From: a virus
Taxonomy: Duplodnaviria; Heunggongvirae; Uroviricota; Caudoviricetes
IMG/VR virus record: IMGVR_UViG_2684622617_000023
Direction: 5' to 3' (one strand)
Length of the DNA stretch: 21,333 nt
How positions within the stretch are numbered: the first letter of the stretch is position 1; each line of letters opens with the position of its first letter. The position numbers and the translations under genes were made by a program. This document shows positions 2,932 through 21,333 of this stretch, piece by piece. The notes beneath the pieces were generated by a model. It did no database searches, had not been told where the DNA came from, and was given only the letters and a program-made list of their open reading frames with translations.

Positions 2932-3218
2932 AAATAACCGTCCTTTCTCCAGATCTCTTGTGTGCGAAAAACACCTTCTGCATGCATCAGGCGCAATTCT
3001 TCTTTGGTGTAATCGCTGGTTTTTACTCTCCCGTCGATTAAATCGTGGCATGAGTTACAGGCAATCGCTGCCTGCATATCGTGTGGCTTTATCGCTGTTC
3101 CGCACGTTCCCGCCAGCCTGTAATGCGCCAGCACAGAGGTTTCGGGATTGTGATTGCAGTAGCCAGGGATTCTGATCTGGCATATCTGGCCTTTAGCCGC
3201 TTTACGTAAATTCACCAT
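2928..3218 (-). CDS. YbcO-like nin-region protein (DUF1364-type, Cys/His-rich, putative nuclease)
   Basis: 96 aa, ...CQIRIPGYCNHNPETSVLAHYRLAGTCGTAIKP...ACNSCHD..., resembling DLP12 YbcO as recalled. Start ATG 3218-3216 overlaps the stop of the upstream gene by 1 nt. Confidence 0.7.
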   Translation of the reverse strand: MVNLRKAAKGQICQIRIPGYCNHNPETSVLAHYRLAGTCGTAIKPHDMQAAIACNSCHDLIDGRVKTSDYTKEELRLMHAEGVFRTQEIWRKDGYL

Positions 3219-3817
3219 TACGCAAACTCCAGTAGTTGTGCGGCCACATTTTCAACTTCCTCCTGAGAGGAGAATTTACGGAACAGAATCCAGTTCCACA
3301 GCACATTCAGTACAGATTTATAAACCTGCTGAAACTCGACTTCGTCCATATTCGCAAAAGCGATGGATTTTGCCCGACGCCCACGGCTACCGTCCGGATA
3401 AATATGCTCGGTGTAAAATCCGGCCTGAATGGTTACCCACTCGCGGAAAGCCTCAAACGACTTTAGCAACGCCGTATCCCGGGTTCTACGAGTCGCAACG
3501 GTGTTAAGGTATTGCTCTGCGGCATCACTCAGGGCTGGCGTGTGTTCCCGACCAACTGATTCGCACAGGTAATCAACGAAACCAGACAGCAGTTCTCGTT
3601 CGCGAGGCGTGATCGCCCCACCGACCGGAGTCCAGTAATCGAATCCCAGTTGCAGGAGTTTGAAAAAACGCTTGTGGAATGCGTAGTTACGCACACGCTT
3701 AAAATCTGCGTGTATCCACTCACCTATTTTGATTTGATGCAGAAAATCGCAACTCTCCGGCGTCGCCGGGAGAAGTAAACCAGAAGAAGTTTGTTTGACC
3801 AGTTGTATATGCGCCAT
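3218..3817 (-). CDS. Conserved lambdoid nin-region protein (199 aa), function unknown
   Basis: Complete ORF with a GAGAG Shine-Dalgarno-like element upstream of ATG 3817; first gene of a coupled three-gene block ending in the Q-like gene. Confidence 0.65.
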   Translation of the reverse strand: MAHIQLVKQTSSGLLLPATPESCDFLHQIKIGEWIHADFKRVRNYAFHKRFFKLLQLGFDYWTPVGGAITPRERELLSGFVDYLCESVGREHTPALSDAAEQYLNTVATRRTRDTALLKSFEAFREWVTIQAGFYTEHIYPDGSRGRRAKSIAFANMDEVEFQQVYKSVLNVLWNWILFRKFSSQEEVENVAAQLLEFA

Positions 3818-3896
3818 TTCTCAATCTCTCGATGGCGCAGTGCAGCAGATGCCAGTTGTTCAAGCTAGCACGCAAATTGTAAACCAGAATGCCAGG

Positions 3897-3925
3897 AAAA
3901 AACAAAACCCGCCGAAGCTGGTTGT
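3897..3925 (-). terminator. Possible tR2-like terminator upstream of the nin block
   Basis: On the - strand: imperfect stem AACCAGC-UUCG-GCGGGUU (one A/G mismatch) followed by UUUUGUUUUUU. Shares the GCUUCGGCGGG core with the terminator at 786..811. Confidence 0.35.
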
Positions 3926-4236
3926 GTGCGGTTGCGTTGAAGTCTCCTAGCCAAAGAGTAGCGGTGACCACTCCCCGCCGATAATCTTAGTTGTTTAATT
4001 TCGTAAGCTAACTAGGCTAAAAGCTCTCTGTTGTCTGCCTGTTGTACAATTAACAAAATGAACAACGAACTAGATATACCAACGCCAGAATGGTGCAACA
4101 AATCCCAAACAACACAGCAATGCAACAATAACATATGTTATTTTCCTCTCACGGGATTCAGTCCTGAATTCTCATAAAGCTAATCTTTTTTTAAAAACAT
4201 ACTGTTAGATCACATGCACTTTCTTTCTTAACATCG

Positions 4237-4264
4237 TTGACTTCGCATGCGAAGCGTTTAAAAT
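4237..4264 (+). promoter_or_regulatory. Candidate sigma70 promoter of the GHKL operon with an embedded 14-bp perfect palindrome (possible operator)
   Basis: TTGACT (4237-4242), 16-nt spacer, TAAAAT (4259-4264), about 50 nt upstream of ATG 4317. CTTCGCATGCGAAG (4241-4254) is a perfect palindrome spanning the -35/spacer. Confidence 0.45.
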
Positions 4265-4316
4265 CAACAATTTGCACTTAAGGTATTTATTTTCCCAAAC
4301 ACATAGAGAGTAAATT

Positions 4317-5708
4317 ATGACTGAGAACACGACTCCAACAGCAGACTTTAGTCCTAGTAAAAGATTTTTTGTAAGTATGCTAACTCGAGATATCGACTTA
4401 AACGATGCCATACTTGATCTGCTTGATAACTGCGTCGATGGGGCTTTACGTACAATAAAAGACACAAAAAAAACTTCAAAACCATATGAAGGATTTTATG
4501 CGAAACTTACGATTAATAAAGATGTCTTTATTATAGAAGACAATTGCGGAGGTATCCCTAAAAGCTTCCGAGAATATGCTTTTAAAATGGGACGACCCCA
4601 TCAAAAAGAAGAAGAAAATGAAGGCACCGTTGGCGTCTATGGTATTGGTATGAAAAGAGCCATTTTTAAAATGGGTAGAGATTGCTCAATACAATCGAAT
4701 AATCCCGATGGCGCATTCACTGTAGATATAACACCTGATTGGATCGATGGTGATGGTTGGAAAATACCGATGCACGAGAGTGACTATGATAACAAAAATC
4801 CAACAGGCACAACTATAGAGATAAAAAAACTCCATTCTAATGTGGCACAAAAATTTAATGAGAGCACATATCTTACTGATCTCTTTTTACAGATAAAACA
4901 CTCATTGTCATTTATTATTCAAAAAGGATTTAAAATAGAATTAAATGGAGTTGTTGTTGAACATAATCCGATTAACATCATAACTGATCATTCTAAAATA
5001 GAACCATACATATATAAAGCTAAAATAGACGATGTTGATATCGATTTAGTTGTTGGCTTCTATAAAAATTTAGAAGATGACAATGATGATGTTTTAGAAA
5101 AAAGGAGTTCTGATGATGCTGGATGGACTGTCATTTGCAATGACCGCGTTGTTCTATATTGTGATAAGACACATCTCACAGGTTGGGGCTTTGCTAATGT
5201 ACCAAGGTTTCATACCCAATTTATAGCAATTTCTGGGGTTGTTCGCTTTACCAGTAAAAACCCAGAAAAATTACCAATAACAACAACGAAACGAGGTGTC
5301 GATCTTAGTTCTACATTGTACAATGATGTACGAAATAAAATGATTGAAGGGATGATGCATTTTATTCGATTCACCAATCAGTGGAAAGGTGAGCATCTTG
5401 AAGAAGGGAAAAAATTACTTAAGTCAGCTCAGTCACATGAAGCTCAATCTTTATTTGAAATTACCCCACAATCAACTCCAGAAGATAAAAAAAATAACTG
5501 GTCCAACCCTAATAGAAACAAAAATGAGTGGCGATATACACCTAAGCTGCCTACCCCAGTAAAAAAAAGCTCTACTGTACGAATAATCTTCACCAGAGAG
5601 AAAGAAGATGTTAAAATTTTATCTAAATATTTCTTTGGACATGAAGATGCTAGCGCTTCTGATGTGGGGATGCAATGCTTTGATACGGTGATTGAAGAGG
5701 TGAAGTGA
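4317..5708 (+). CDS. GHKL (Bergerat-fold, MutL/MORC/Hsp90-like) ATPase, 463 aa
   Basis: N-box LDLLDNCVDGA (Asn38 codon at 4428-4430), G1 box IEDNCGGIP, G2 box GTVGVYGIGMKRA, in canonical order near the N-terminus. AGAGAG Shine-Dalgarno 6 nt before the ATG. Gene looks strongly AT-rich compared with flanking phage genes. Confidence 0.8.
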   Translation: MTENTTPTADFSPSKRFFVSMLTRDIDLNDAILDLLDNCVDGALRTIKDTKKTSKPYEGFYAKLTINKDVFIIEDNCGGIPKSFREYAFKMGRPHQKEEENEGTVGVYGIGMKRAIFKMGRDCSIQSNNPDGAFTVDITPDWIDGDGWKIPMHESDYDNKNPTGTTIEIKKLHSNVAQKFNESTYLTDLFLQIKHSLSFIIQKGFKIELNGVVVEHNPINIITDHSKIEPYIYKAKIDDVDIDLVVGFYKNLEDDNDDVLEKRSSDDAGWTVICNDRVVLYCDKTHLTGWGFANVPRFHTQFIAISGVVRFTSKNPEKLPITTTKRGVDLSSTLYNDVRNKMIEGMMHFIRFTNQWKGEHLEEGKKLLKSAQSHEAQSLFEITPQSTPEDKKNNWSNPNRNKNEWRYTPKLPTPVKKSSTVRIIFTREKEDVKILSKYFFGHEDASASDVGMQCFDTVIEEVK

Positions 5709-6697
5709 TGTCTGGACAATACATTCCCTATCACTTAAGGCATAATAAGTCTATTGATAGAGAGATTTTTCTCGAAAGCCTAAACCTCTTAAGCAAAAGA
5801 CTAAATATTCAAGAATATACATATATAGGTTTTGGTGGTCCGATGCTTGAAGATTTTAGAATCATGCATAATCGTATCGCTCTTTCTGATATGATTTCTC
5901 TCGAAGAACAAGAGTCTACTCACATCAGACAAAAATATAATTTGCCTTATAATTGTATTGATTGTAAGCTAATATCAGCTCATGACTTTATTCTTGATTA
6001 TAGTTTTTCTAAACCATCAATAACATGGTTAGACTATGCCTCCCCGAAAAAAATACAAACGGATCTAGATGATATACACTTACTAAGTACTAAAGTAAGC
6101 TCTTTTGATATTTTGAAGGTCACCTTCCCCATAAATCCTAGTTCTTATTACCAACGTAGAGTTGGAGAAAGTTTAGATATTTTTAAAGAAGCTTTTATTA
6201 ATTCATTAAAATCATTGCTTGGGAAAAAGTATCTTGATTTTAATCTTCAGATATCAAATGCAGATCTTTCAGATCGTAAGATTAAAGCTCTTTTAATACG
6301 AATTATTACAAACGCTTTTAGATCAGCAATAGAACGTGGTCTTTCAGGACGTAAGGATAAGATTCAGTATTACCCATTATCCTTAAATCAATATAATGAT
6401 GGCAGTCATACCATGTTGACAATATCAGGTTTTTTCTCCTCAGAACAAGAATATATAGAGTTATCTAAGGCATGCGACCTTTCTAACTGGCAATTTTATT
6501 CAACAAATTGGGAAGACGTGCAAGAAATAGCAATACCAACACTAACAATTAAAGAAAAGATAAATTTAGATAGTAAACTGCCTGATAAAGAAGCATATCA
6601 GGCAGCCGCTGAAGAGTTCTCTTTAAACGAAAATGAACGGGATAACTATTATAAATACTATAGGTTATACCCTAACTTCCAAAGAATTATGGTTTAA
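5708..6697 (+). CDS. Uncharacterised partner protein of the GHKL ATPase, 329 aa
   Basis: ATG 5708 overlaps the upstream TGA (TGATG) with a GAGG Shine-Dalgarno about 9 nt upstream; the track's start at 5705 is a GTG one codon earlier. No catalytic motif recognisable by eye. The 3' end overlaps the convergent methyltransferase gene by 33 bp. Confidence 0.7.
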   Translation: MSGQYIPYHLRHNKSIDREIFLESLNLLSKRLNIQEYTYIGFGGPMLEDFRIMHNRIALSDMISLEEQESTHIRQKYNLPYNCIDCKLISAHDFILDYSFSKPSITWLDYASPKKIQTDLDDIHLLSTKVSSFDILKVTFPINPSSYYQRRVGESLDIFKEAFINSLKSLLGKKYLDFNLQISNADLSDRKIKALLIRIITNAFRSAIERGLSGRKDKIQYYPLSLNQYNDGSHTMLTISGFFSSEQEYIELSKACDLSNWQFYSTNWEDVQEIAIPTLTIKEKINLDSKLPDKEAYQAAAEEFSLNENERDNYYKYYRLYPNFQRIMV

Positions 6698-7816
6698 ATA
6701 TTCGGGCTGTACTCTTTTATTTAATAAATTGTACAGCCCCTTTAATATATATTCAGCAACTATTGGTGACACGCTATTTCCTATTTGTCTGAAACTATGC
6801 CATTTAGTTACATGAAAGCGAAACCAATCAGGGAAGCCTTGTAATCTAGCAGCTTCTCTTGGTGTAATCACTCTTGGATGATAAGGGTGGATCGGCCTGA
6901 CGGCTTGAAAGCTTCCTTTATCTCTAGCGGTTCCCGCCCTTAAAGTCGGGCAAAAACCATTTGGATCTAATCTTGTAGATCTTGAAATTTTATCAGTTTC
7001 CCCAAAAGATAAGGAAGCATAACGCTCTTGGACGATTTTGCTATGTAATGTTCCGGTACATCCAGATATGATATTATTTTTTAACTTAGCGATCGATTCT
7101 GTATCACCAACATTCCGAGGGATCTGCCCCCATAATTTTTCATAAAATCCCCCTTTTCGATCTTTTTTAATTGTTCGCCAACTCTCAGAGTCTGATTGCC
7201 AATTGGCATCGATAATATCTGGTAATCCATACAAAGCATCTTTTACAGTAACCGGATCAATCATTTTAGGCATAAATACTTCATCTGAAATATCAAGCTT
7301 CAATGATTTTTTTACACCGATAAAAAAATATCTAGTTCGAATAGTTGGAGCACCATAATCAGATGCTTTTACCTTGATGGGATCAAGAATATCATAATCA
7401 CCGCTAACCAAATTAAATGCTTTATTTCTAATGCCAGAATATTTCTCTTGCATAATACCTGGAACATTTTCTGCCAAAAAGAATAATGGCTGTAATTCTG
7501 ATACTAAACGGTAGAAATGCATGTAAAGCTGATTCCTGCTATCATCAGGATTCCCCTTGCCTATTGAACTAAATCCTTGGCACGGAGGACCGCCAATAAT
7601 ACCATCTATGGGCATATCGTTTTTAAAAAAACCCTTAATTATTTCTGCATTTAGTAAAGAAACATCTTCTTGGACGTGCAAACTTCTTGGAAAATTAATT
7701 GCGTGAGTATTAATAGCATGTTGATCAATTTCAACTGCCATTTTAACATCAAATCCAGCACGTGCAGCACCAAGACTTAGACCTCCAACGCCAGAAAACA
7801 AATCTATTACATTCAT
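6665..7816 (-). CDS. DNA (cytosine-5)-methyltransferase, 383 aa
   Basis: C5-MTase motifs in order: motif I FSGVGG, motif IV GPPCQGFS (catalytic Cys), motif VI ENV, motif VIII-like RTRYFFIG, C-terminal motif X GNSVSPIVAEY. AT-rich. Target specificity cannot be read from sequence. Confidence 0.85.
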   Translation of the reverse strand: MNVIDLFSGVGGLSLGAARAGFDVKMAVEIDQHAINTHAINFPRSLHVQEDVSLLNAEIIKGFFKNDMPIDGIIGGPPCQGFSSIGKGNPDDSRNQLYMHFYRLVSELQPLFFLAENVPGIMQEKYSGIRNKAFNLVSGDYDILDPIKVKASDYGAPTIRTRYFFIGVKKSLKLDISDEVFMPKMIDPVTVKDALYGLPDIIDANWQSDSESWRTIKKDRKGGFYEKLWGQIPRNVGDTESIAKLKNNIISGCTGTLHSKIVQERYASLSFGETDKISRSTRLDPNGFCPTLRAGTARDKGSFQAVRPIHPYHPRVITPREAARLQGFPDWFRFHVTKWHSFRQIGNSVSPIVAEYILKGLYNLLNKRVQPEYLNHNSLEVRV

Positions 7817-7848
7817 ATAGTTGCAACGTCTCTTATTAGTTTCTATGT

Positions 7849-7857
7849 ATTATAACA
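7849..7857 (-). promoter_or_regulatory. Extended -10 promoter element (TGnTATAAT) upstream of the methyltransferase gene
   Basis: - strand reads TGTTATAAT with the -10 hexamer at 7854..7849, about 33 nt upstream of ATG 7816; no convincing -35. Confidence 0.35.
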
Positions 7858-8078
7858 CAACTGTTCTTGATGTTTTAACCCCATAAGATAACCTCATAAA
7901 GGCTATCCCTTGAAAATACCGGATCGCATAAATTTAATCTTTCAAAACTACTTGTCTATTAATCGAGCAATTTAAGGTTGTTTTAGTCATGTCGATACCG
8001 ACATAGTTAACTAAACCCATTTCATCGTCCAACAAATGGGGGTAATACACTTTGATTTATAGTCGGGTGGGTTTTTCT

Positions 8079-18548: not shown

Positions 18549-19350
18549 GCAACCACCAATCGCAAAAGCCGATCTGCAAAAAACTCAGGGAAACCGTGCA
18601 CCAGCAGCAATTAAAAATAACGACGTGATTAGTTTTATTAACCAGCCATCAATGAAAGAGCAACTGGCAGCAGCTCTTCCACGCCATATGACGGCTGAAC
18701 GTATGATCCGTATCGCCACCACAGAAATTCGTAAAGTTCCGGCGTTAGGAAACTGTGACACTATGAGTTTTGTCAGTGCAATCGTACAGTGTTCACAGCT
18801 CGGACTTGAGCCCGGTAGCGCCCTCGGTCATGCATATTTACTGCCTTTTGGTAATAAAAACGAAAAGAGCGGTAAAAAAAACGTTCAGCTAATCATTGGC
18901 TATCGAGGCATGATTGATCTGGCTCGCCGTTCAGGTCAAATCGCCAGCTTGTCAGCCCGTGTTGTCCGTGAAGGTGACGAGTTTAATTTCGAATTTGGCC
19001 TTGATGAAAAGTTAATACACCGCCCAGGAGAAAACGAAGATGCCCCTGTTACCCACGTCTATGCTGTCGCAAGACTGAAAGACGGAGGTACTCAGTTTGA
19101 AGTTATGACGCGCAAACAGATTGAGCTGGTGCGCAGCCAGAGTAAAGCTGGTAATAACGGGCCGTGGGTAACTCACTGGGAAGAAATGGCAAAGAAAACG
19201 GCTATTCGTCGCCTGTTCAAATATCTGCCCGTATCAATTGAGATCCAGCGTGCAGTATCAATGGATGAAAAGGAACCACTGACAATCGATCCTGCAGATT
19301 CCTCTGTATTAACCGGGGAATACAGTGTAATCGATAATTCAGAGGAATAA
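18541..19350 (+). CDS. recT: RecT single-strand annealing protein, 269 aa
   Basis: Track ORF trimmed to [14 protein letters not shown]...; ATG overlaps the 3' end of recE by 8 nt. Confidence 0.95.
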
Positions 19351-19358
19351 TTCAGCCT

Positions 19359-19377
19359 GGCGGTGTAATGCACCGCC
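19359..19377 (+). other. GC-rich stem-loop between recT and ralR (GGCGGTG-TAATG-CACCGCC)
   Basis: Perfect 7-bp inverted repeat 9 nt after the recT stop; the following tract is AT-rich but not an immediate U-run, so a weak terminator or processing site. Confidence 0.3.
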
Positions 19378-19405
19378 AACTTGAAATATTTTTATGAGAA
19401 AAATT

Positions 19406-19600
19406 ATGAGATATGACAATGTTAAACCATGTCCATTTTGTGGTTGTCCATCAGTAACGGTGAAAGCCATTTCAGGATATTACCGAGCGAAGTGTAACGG
19501 ATGCGAATCCCGAACCGGTTATGGTGGAAGTGAAAAAGAAGCACTCGAACGATGAAATAAACGAACCACTGGAAATAATAATGGAGGTGTTCATGTATAA
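19406..19600 (+). pseudogene. ralR: ralR (restriction-alleviation Lar / type I toxin) with an in-frame TGA at codon 50
   Basis: From ATG 19406 the frame reads MRYDNVKPCPFCGCPSVTVKAISGYYRAKCNGCESRTGYGGSEKEALER, then TGA at 19553-19555, then NKRTTGNNNGGVHV to TAA 19598-19600. 49 + 1 + 14 = 64 codons, the length I recall for K-12 RalR, where this codon is TGG (Trp). Confidence 0.6.
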
Positions 19601-19781
19601 AATTACCGCCACTATTGAAAAGGAAGGTGGCACTCCTACTAACTGGACAAGATATTCAAAATCTAAACTAACGAAATCAGAATGCGAAAAAATGCTCTCA
19701 GGTAAAAAAGAAGCAGGCGTTTCCAGAGAGCAGAAAGTAAAACTGATAAATTTTAATTGCGAGAAACTTCAGTCCTCGTGA
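19593..19781 (+). CDS. ydaC: Small Rac protein, 62 aa
   Basis: ATG 19593 with a GGAGG Shine-Dalgarno 6 nt upstream (MYKITATIEKEGGTPTNW...); the longer track ORF starting 19521 lacks a ribosome-binding site. Confidence 0.65.
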   Translation: MYKITATIEKEGGTPTNWTRYSKSKLTKSECEKMLSGKKEAGVSREQKVKLINFNCEKLQSS

Positions 19782-19880
19782 ATTGCATTGTATTCAAATT
19801 AAAACTTCATAGCTGATTATTAATAATCAACATCGGGCGTCAATTTAAGTCTAACATTGGCGCCTGCCAGAGGTGATGCG

Positions 19881-20096
19881 ATGGCACAAGTAATCTTTAA
19901 TGAAGAGTGGATGGTTGAATACGGCCTGATGCTTCGCACTGGTCTGGGGGCCAGACAAATTGAAGCATACCGCCAGAACTGTTGGGTGGAAGGCTTCCAC
20001 TTCAAACGAGTATCTCCTTTAGGGAAGCCAGACAGTAAGCGAGGGATTATCTGGTATAACTATCCAAAGATAAATCAGTTTATCAAAGACTCATGA
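19881..20096 (+). CDS. xisR: Excisionase, 71 aa
   Basis: Track ORF trimmed to [15 protein letters not shown]... with an AGAGGTGA Shine-Dalgarno; stop is 1 nt before the int ATG. Confidence 0.85.
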
Positions 20097-20097
20097 T

Positions 20098-21333
20098 ATG
20101 TCTAAATTACCAACAGGTGTCGAGATTCGAGGTAAATACATTCGCATCTGGTTCATGTTTCGAGGAAAACGATGTCGGGAAACATTGAAAGGCTGGGAGG
20201 TTACTAACAGTAACATTAAAAAAGCCGGGAATTTAAGAGCGTTGATAGTTCATGAAATCAATTCCGGTGAGTTTGAGTATTTAAGACGTTTTCCCCAGTC
20301 CAGCACTGGGGCAAAAATGGTGACAACGAGGGTCATAAAAACGTTCGGGGAGCTTTGTGATATCTGGACAAAAATTAAAGAAACAGAGTTAACAACAAAC
20401 ACAATGAAGAAAACGAAATCACAATTAAAAACACTCAGGATAATAATTTGTGAGAGTACTCCGATATCGCATATTCGTTATAGCGATATCTTAAACTACC
20501 GGAATGAACTGCTGCATGGAGAAACGCTTTACCTGGATAATCCAAGATCCAACAAAAAAGGAAGAACCGTGCGCACAGTTGATAACTATATCGCCCTGCT
20601 CTGTTCGTTGTTACGTTTTGCGTATCAGTCGGGATTTATATCAACCAAACCATTTGAAGGAGTAAAGAAATTACAGAGAAACAGAATAAAGCCTGACCCG
20701 TTATCTAAAACAGAATTCAATGCATTAATGGAAAGTGAAAAAGGACAGAGCCAGAACTTGTGGAAATTTGCCGTATACTCCGGGCTTCGTCACGGGGAAC
20801 TGGCTGCTCTGGCGTGGGAGGATGTGGATTTCGAGAAGGGAGTTGTGAATGTCAGAAGAAACCTGACGATACTGGATATGTTCGGTCCCCCAAAAACAAA
20901 TGCGGGGATCCGGACGGTAACACTACTGCAGCCTGCTCTTGAAGCACTGAAGGAGCAATACAAACTGACCGGGCATCATCGCAAAAGCGAAATCACCTTT
21001 TATCATCGGGAGTACGGCAGAACCGAAAAGCAAAAACTGCATTTTGTTTTCATGCCCAGGGTGTGTAACGGAAAACAAAAACCTTATTACTCGGTAAGCA
21101 GTTTGGGGGCAAGGTGGAATGCAGCAGTAAAACGTGCTGGTATTCGCCGCCGTAATCCGTACCATACGCGGCATACTTTTGCCTGCTGGCTGTTGACGGC
21201 AGGAGCGAACCCGGCATTTATAGCCAGCCAAATGGGGCATGAAACTGCGCAGATGGTGTATGAAATTTACGGTATGTGGATTGATGACATGAACGACGAA
21301 CAGGTAGCCATGTTGAATGCGCGGTTATCATAG
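20098..21333 (+). CDS. intR: Tyrosine site-specific integrase, 411 aa
   Basis: Full-length ORF with the C-terminal catalytic region (...HTRHTFACWLLTAGANPAFIASQMGHETAQMVYEIYGMW...); the window ends at its TAG stop. Confidence 0.95.
   Translation: MSKLPTGVEIRGKYIRIWFMFRGKRCRETLKGWEVTNSNIKKAGNLRALIVHEINSGEFEYLRRFPQSSTGAKMVTTRVIKTFGELCDIWTKIKETELTTNTMKKTKSQLKTLRIIICESTPISHIRYSDILNYRNELLHGETLYLDNPRSNKKGRTVRTVDNYIALLCSLLRFAYQSGFISTKPFEGVKKLQRNRIKPDPLSKTEFNALMESEKGQSQNLWKFAVYSGLRHGELAALAWEDVDFEKGVVNVRRNLTILDMFGPPKTNAGIRTVTLLQPALEALKEQYKLTGHHRKSEITFYHREYGRTEKQKLHFVFMPRVCNGKQKPYYSVSSLGARWNAAVKRAGIRRRNPYHTRHTFACWLLTAGANPAFIASQMGHETAQMVYEIYGMWIDDMNDEQVAMLNARLS

Follow-up and report, generated by a model that had tools for sequence, protein, structure and literature searches.

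The window, as we call the whole 21,333-nt stretch of viral DNA analysed here (IMG/VR record IMGVR_UViG_2684622617_000023), carries a natural W50* allele of ralR (lar), the toxin gene of the Rac-prophage RalR/RalA pair. It is highly probable, in our judgement, that this allele had a single origin and that it leaves the toxin disabled and RalA intact. Translation would stop at UGA-A, and the 49-residue peptide so released, with its four-cysteine zinc ribbon but with neither the W-N-[KR]-R motif nor the second half of the single helix, would thereby be without DNase activity and toxicity. With the RalA sRNA gene and both pairing sites unchanged, an intact antitoxin would lie next to a disabled toxin. 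The W50* change would have been inherited vertically and by recombination on a recE-recT-ralR-ydaC block, and would in this way have come to be present in O157:H7, O55:H7, O111:H8, O26, O103 and various other E. coli. We document here the base change with its polarity and frequency, show that ralA is intact, and trace how far the lost residues are conserved.

An opal stop at codon 50 of ralR

By translation and in the list of open reading frames, ralR of the window consists of 49 codons and a TGA on the plus strand (Table 1). Its neighbours stand in the order recT-ralR-ydaC, as in K-12 Rac, and the gene is, by descent and synteny, ralR/lar of Rac. In K-12 MG1655, ralR (b1348) lies between recT and rcbA/ydaC and is 195 nt long, that is, 64 codons and a stop. 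Alignment of the two genes gave 193 identities in 195 nt, and one of the two in-gene differences, at codon 49, leaves Arg49 unchanged. The other is at position 19555, where the window has A and K-12 has G, so that the Trp50 codon TGG of K-12 is TGA in the window. The plus-strand translation of 19406-19600 reads MRYDNVKPCPFCGCPSVTVKAISGYYRAKCNGCESRTGYGGSEKEALER, stop, NKRTTGNNNGGVHV, stop; past the TGA, 14 further in-frame codons lead to the TAA used by K-12 (19598-19600), and with this original stop the ralR frame overlaps the ydaC start (ATG, 19593-19595). Codons 51-53 (N, K, R) of the invariant motif discussed below are among those 14.

The initial annotation, made from the sequence alone, had proposed that an in-frame TGA replaces a Trp codon of ralR and shortens the product from 64 to 49 aa, and that the frame stays open through the TGA to a stop overlapping ydaC (49 + 1 + 14 codons). 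The translation and the alignment to b1348 bear out both statements; the 64-aa length and the TGG codon that it gave for K-12 were also right.

Outside the gene, the window and K-12 also differ upstream of the ralR start, in a T-run that is 1 nt shorter in the window. This run (19384-19388) is T5 in the window and in strain E2865 and T6 in K-12, and it just precedes an alternative ATG at 19394, which is the start in some annotations (53-aa form).

Table 1. Positions of ralR, ralA and ydaC features in the window
Feature	Position	Strand	Remarks
Truncated ralR (lar) ORF	19406..19555	+	CPFC...CxxC zinc ribbon and first 7 residues of the predicted C-terminal helix
RalA target in ralR, 16 nt	19528..19543	+	AAGTGAAAAAGAAGCA, codes Ser-Glu-Lys-Glu-Ala; intact; matches the repeat and the M1/M2 mutants of PMC4041452
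Synonymous site, codon 49	19550..19550	+	C (CGA) in window, A (AGA) in K-12
Premature opal stop, codon 50	19553..19555	+	TGG in K-12 and outgroup Rac-like prophages; context UGA-A
Untranslated ralR remnant	19556..19600	+	14 in-frame codons, NKRTTGNNNGGVHV, and original TAA; identical to K-12
ydaC/rcbA (DUF1187), 62 aa	19593..19781	+	Pfam PF06688, 132 bits, profile 1-61 of 61; RefSeq WP_001302840.1
ralA, 179-nt antitoxin sRNA gene	19599..19777	-	Rfam RF02694, 225.1 bits (gathering score 170), model 1-179 of 179
RalA repeat, 16 nt	19700..19715	-	RNA TGCTTCTTTTTTACCT (plus strand AGGTAAAAAAGAAGCA); RalA positions 63-78; pairs with ralR mRNA

Frequency of the allele and its standing in databases

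Alleles were counted with 35-nt queries in which both variable sites were central. Every 28-nt megablast seed then spans both sites, and a match therefore implies the exact haplotype at codons 49-50. The ralR region was present in 1920 of 5426 complete E. coli genomes. The K-12 haplotype, AGA-TGG, was found in 1408 of the 5426, the window haplotype, CGA-TGA, in 310, CGA-TGG in 126, and AGA-TGA in none. Carriers of CGA-TGA, looked at in a spread sample of the 310, included O157:H7, O55:H7 RM12579, O111:H8, O26 and O103 strains as well as clinical, ESBL and environmental isolates.

For a single-base difference from an orthologue a chance test is not applicable, and the control is reproducibility across genomes. 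Many E. coli genomes, each finished independently, have the same 321 nt around ralR (19340-19660), with 100% identity. The TGA allele was also found in the GenBank phage record ON470616.1 (Escherichia phage vB_EcoS-673R7), and two further phage records show the same single mismatch as ON470616.1, which brings the allele to three phage records; phage Rac-SA53 has TGG at codon 50. That the true base at 19555 is G and that the A is a sequencing or assembly error is an explanation for which the single-base nature of the difference is the one thing to be said. Against it, the A at 19555 is always linked to the C at 19550 in the 310 independently assembled genomes, and an error is accordingly very improbable. 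The initial annotation had asked that such an error be excluded, and the TGA in 310 complete genomes (by the allele-specific 35-mer) and in three phage records, together with the identical 321 nt, excludes it.

The exact 49-aa RalR was encoded on at least 1000 contigs of a protein collection, and the protein has RefSeq and UniRef names. In RefSeq it is WP_001443846.1 ([quoted passage not shown], MULTISPECIES), a complete 49-aa protein on identical DNA, with no difference from the window's product; it is called RalR toxin, not pseudogene, and the entry is named as for a full-length toxin, without a remark on truncation. The initial annotation held that reference RalR sequences ending at this position would count against a truncation. 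Formally such a sequence exists in WP_001443846.1, which is the same derived allele elsewhere: what falls is the notion that the allele is rare, and the truncation stands. That other strains carry this derived allele as WP_001443846.1 does not show 49 aa to be the normal length of RalR. The ralR TGA allele is thus already catalogued in RefSeq, UniRef and GenBank, and is an ordinary nonsense polymorphism of a cryptic-prophage toxin gene. A literature search for a truncated ralR allele (O157, EHEC) found no paper discussing the TGA allele.

Polarity and origin

The divergent Rac-like prophages of O145 RM9872, L73 and ML35, which have a different recT and several changes at the 5' end of ralR, read CGA TGG at codons 49-50. 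With these prophages as outgroup, CGA and TGG are ancestral, the AGA of K-12 is derived, and the TGA of the window is derived. The TGA is apparently one G-to-A change on the ancestral CGA background, with a single origin, as far as sequence comparison can tell. A recurrent origin was also considered: TGA on the K-12 AGA background had no match among the 5426 complete genomes, which fits a single origin.

From recE through ydaC, the window and E2865, another carrier of the TGA, differ at 5 sites only, and in recE and recT the window differs from K-12 at more than 30 sites. Across xisR/intR (19847-21304), 44 SNPs part the window from both K-12 and E2865, which is of O26 type, and there E2865 agrees with K-12. 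The near-identity to E2865 from recE to ydaC, set against the 44 SNPs in xisR/intR, places a recombination breakpoint between 19779 and 19847. On these alignments, the TGA belongs to a single recET-ralR-ydaC haplotype block, which recombination has joined to different integrase modules.

The RalA antitoxin and ydaC

The locus is orthologous to the K-12 RalR/RalA type I toxin-antitoxin locus (Guo et al. 2014, PMC4041452; b1348, b4714), with the order recT-ralR-ydaC (ralA antisense)-xisR-intR, and in the best-matching genomes it lies beside ttcA. The ralA gene, which the initial annotation could not locate by eye, was placed by Rfam (Table 1). It is antisense to ydaC, of full length, and identical to K-12 ralA (b4714). 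RalA pairs with ralR mRNA via two 16-nt repeats, and its transcript starts 62 nt upstream of its own repeat (PMC4041452); the position of the RalA repeat in the window fits this start. Both repeats are identical to those of K-12, and the pairing between them includes 11 nt of contiguous perfect matches. The target in ralR ends 10 nt 5' of the TGA. An effect of the SNPs on RalA pairing was considered and discarded: the two SNPs are 7 and 12 nt beyond the 3' end of the 16-nt site, and by inspection the flanking bases give no extension of the duplex. The Hfq dependence of RalA's antitoxin activity is known for K-12 only (PMC4041452).

The premature TGA ends ralR translation 37 nt before ydaC. That gene has its own GGAGG Shine-Dalgarno sequence at 19583-19587, and only the stop-start overlap is lost. 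The ORFs of recE, recT, xisR and intR are intact in the window. Compared with K-12 RalR, then, the window's product has 49 residues instead of 64 and lacks W50-V64, and on sequence grounds the toxin half of the pair is probably non-functional, next to a ralA gene and two repeats identical to those of K-12. The locus is most likely a disabled toxin beside an intact antitoxin.

Several further observations concern this region. The ydaC stop (19779-19781) is TGA in the window and in the outgroup Rac-like prophages (62 aa, full DUF1187 profile, 1-61 of 61). K-12 rcbA has AGA at that codon and is 7 codons longer, 69 aa. Because the outgroups share the TGA and 62 aa fits the full profile, K-12 rcbA is a derived stop-loss. 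Relative to ralA, the SNP in the ydaC stop falls 2 nt before the RalA 5' end (19777), in the interval between +1 and a TACAAT -10-like hexamer. A hairpin, GGCGGTG-N5-CACCGCC (19359-19377), directly follows the recT stop and precedes ralR; in the divergent Rac-like prophages its stem is conserved and its loop differs (TAATG vs TAGCCT). A terminator scan of 19250-19900 gave no matches, this hairpin included, which went uncalled because no T-run abuts the stem.

Other forms of ralR occur in public E. coli genomes. Two of them encode RalR-YdaC fusion proteins, of 67 aa (P0012) and 96 aa (P0015). The junction of the 67-aa fusion (...SEKEA|GVSREQ...) falls exactly at the two 16-nt RalA/ralR repeats, which points to a deletion between the repeats in which the 3' end of ralR and part of ralA were lost, an independent destruction of the toxin. 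A frameshifted RalR (P0005) and a W50S form (P0002) were found in other genomes.

What the truncation removes

The Lar_restr_allev profile, PF14354, matched the 64-aa RalR with 53.5 bits over profile positions 2-58. The 49-aa product still matched with 39 bits (gathering cut-off 28.6, E 9.4e-10) over positions 2-52 of 58, so that the truncation costs 14.5 bits and profile positions 53-58. The window ORF keeps all the zinc-ribbon cysteines, C9, C12, C30 and C33 (CPFC ... CxxC), but not the W-N-[KR]-R motif: the stop is at W50, and N51, K52 and R53 come after it.

R49, W50, N51 and R53 do not vary among the orthologues from Escherichia, Salmonella and Citrobacter. When 1.8 billion cluster representatives were searched with a profile, 2391 proved to be members of the Lar family. 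Conservation was scored in an alignment of 80 of these, the single-domain representatives with a length of 45-85 aa in the top 150. W50 and R53 were present in all 80, N51 in 79, and the zinc cysteines in 79-80; none of the 80 ended before position 54. This sample was picked with a motif-containing profile, which inflates the apparent invariance, and the Pfam profile serves as an independent check. The 49-aa product thus shares with the Lar family (PF14354) the CPFC...CxxC zinc-ribbon core and a significant profile match, and differs in that the helix lacks its second half and the C-terminal W-N-[KR]-R motif is missing, an architecture seen in 0 of 80 sampled members.

An AlphaFold model of RalR, of moderate confidence (pLDDT 72.7, from a 7-sequence alignment), shows residues 17-30 as a beta-hairpin and residues 43-58 as the one helix; in this model the stop halves the only helix of RalR. 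A search of PDB sequences with the 64-aa RalR returned only a spurious weak match to the chitin-binding protein CbpD. A Foldseek comparison of the model with the PDB gave nothing at E < 0.1, only generic zinc-ribbon and dsRBD-like fragments, and there is thus no structural analogue to help explain the DNase activity of RalR.

Mutational data bear on the lost segment. Guo et al. 2014 found that error-prone PCR changes at residues 14, 37, 39, 49, 51 and 52 lower RalR toxicity, and that a purified residue-52 mutant (plasmid A154G) failed to cleave DNA (PMC4041452). Codon 52 in the window is AAA at 19559-19561, in agreement with the numbering of Guo et al., and residues 51 and 52 both lie past the stop. 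A text search of that paper (PMC4041452) found no truncation mutant of RalR. Because the lost W50, N51 and R53 are invariant in the family and mutants of residues 51 and 52 are impaired, loss of function is the best-supported reading. RalR of K-12 is a non-specific DNase that inhibits growth; the 49-aa form has most likely lost DNase activity and toxicity, a strong inference from these published mutants and from conservation. The suggestion of the initial annotation that a nonsense allele may inactivate a toxic gene is thus supported.

Lar of Rac was reportedly described by King and Murray in 1995. The proposal that Lar alleviates restriction is cited by Guo et al. 2014 (their refs 30 and 31; PMC4041452); a restriction-modification review made no mention of Lar. 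Restriction-alleviation activity is probably lost from the 49-aa form too. It is also conceivable that the truncation separated two functions, such that a stable 49-aa zinc-ribbon fragment, its DNase activity lost, keeps a non-toxic role, in alleviation of type I restriction or in binding a partner, and has been selected. The retention of the four cysteines and the beta-hairpin, with a Pfam score of 39 bits against the threshold of 28.6, would agree with this, as would the wide spread across phylogroups of an allele whose sampled copies have no further lesions, and the intact state of the rest of the operon (recE, recT, ydaC, xisR, intR) in the window. However, the W-N-x-R motif is universal in the Lar family, whatever its function, with no sampled full-length member ending before it; the helix would be halved in the model; and a recent single SNP persists without selection. 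We consider such a separation of functions improbable. Points contrary to a simple loss of function are that there is no second lesion, that local identity is 100% in many lineages, and that RefSeq treats the product as a complete protein, from which some residual function would be possible; low-level UGA read-through with insertion of Trp would also still supply some wild-type RalR.

Read-through and recoding of the UGA

The initial annotation had also raised partial read-through of the UGA. If the stop is leaky, tRNA-Trp would read the UGA and reinsert Trp50, giving full-length RalR at a few per cent, more under stress, and the toxin-antitoxin pair would be dimmed. Insertion by tRNA-Trp would restore wild-type RalR exactly. 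Nothing has changed, relative to K-12, in the 14 downstream codons or the natural stop, and ralA and its target site are retained. Further, TGA is the most read-through stop in E. coli, with Trp mostly inserted, and cold or a shortage of nutrients increases its read-through (PMC11126739); binding of RF2 to UGA-A is relatively weak (PMC5373646). The high read-through figures, however, were obtained in K-12, which has a defective RF2 with Thr246. Where RF2 carries Ala246, termination at UGAA is fast and the K-12 read-through products vanish (PMC5373646). The window's best matches are O157:H7-type, non-K-12 genomes, and a host with the efficient RF2 Ala246 is therefore expected.

Nor does the DNA around the stop favour a leaky codon. 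An 81-nt fold at this site had an MFE of -8.3 kcal/mol (z = +0.39), with the first 30 nt after the UGA unpaired, so that no hairpin or other stimulatory structure is present 3' of the UGA. An Rfam scan of the window at the gathering threshold returned RalA and two tRNAs only. The UGA is confined to one young haplotype, and the orthologues and distant relatives all encode Trp at this codon. The intact downstream frame is explained by recency and by its overlap with the ydaC ribosome-binding site and start and with the 3' end of RalA. Natural cases of tRNA-Trp read-through (nudL and pheL in K-12, PMC5373646; reporters in PMC11126739) share the UGA-A stop and the open frame with ralR, but nudL and pheL rest largely on the weak RF2 Thr246 of K-12, whereas the ralR host is of non-K-12 type and nothing marks the site as programmed. 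There is, in our view, little likelihood that the stop is leaky to the extent supposed. Read-through with Trp insertion is in principle possible; given the UGA-A context, the expected RF2 Ala246 and the lack of structure, a functionally meaningful level is unlikely.

A more elaborate form of the same idea is that the TGA acts as a "dimmer", in which low, stress-dependent Trp read-through (cold, starvation) lets EHEC-type strains keep a weak, RalA-controlled DNase toxin. If true, a toxin would here be tuned naturally by a leaky opal codon, with miscoding giving back the original residue; we regard this as a slender chance. Recoding of the UGA, as selenocysteine or as a programmed site, would likewise account for an in-frame UGA with an open frame behind it. 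The lack of a stem-loop 3' of the UGA, the lack at the gathering score of any Rfam family besides RalA and the tRNAs, and the presence in homologues of Trp, not Cys or Sec, at codon 50 make its likelihood negligible, and selenocysteine insertion and programmed read-through were rejected. Termination at the UGA, with release of the 49-residue peptide, is the reading that we prefer.

Other features of the prophage

The segment 1079-2322 of the window, 1244 bp, stands in place of 84 bp of the best-matching genome, that of strain 107, which is otherwise 99.99% identical. On its minus strand are the gene of an AraC-family HTH protein of 237 aa (1106-1819) and an ORF of 106 aa (1955-2275), and the segment occurs, 100% identical, at other places in genomes of O157:H7 and other STEC. 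The whole window is in none of the complete genomes of the collection, and the prophage is thus a mosaic. Genes for a tRNA-Arg (anticodon TCT) and for a tRNA with the anticodon CAT, typical cargo of lambdoid STEC prophages, lie at 825-901 and 1002-1077 on the minus strand; the CAT-anticodon tRNA is called Met by ARAGORN and tRNA-Ile by RefSeq. A further cargo block lies at about 3157-6656 (4657-8156 in the coordinates of locus L003). As annotated by RefSeq in the matching genome, its products are an ATP-binding protein (463 aa), an O-methyltransferase (329 aa) and, from a convergent gene, a DNA cytosine methyltransferase (383 aa); the block may be a modification or defence-related module.

Significance

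The importance of the finding is modest, as decay by a nonsense SNP is what one expects of a toxin gene in a cryptic prophage. There is a point of annotation, in that RefSeq names the 49-aa product as a toxin with no flag. The phenotypes of K-12 RalR/RalA include the fosfomycin response and DNase toxicity (PMC4041452); neither these nor the restriction alleviation earlier ascribed to Lar should be carried over to EHEC-type strains without a test. About one-sixth of the complete E. coli genomes that carry ralR, including those of the main EHEC serotypes, are probably without active RalR but with RalA.
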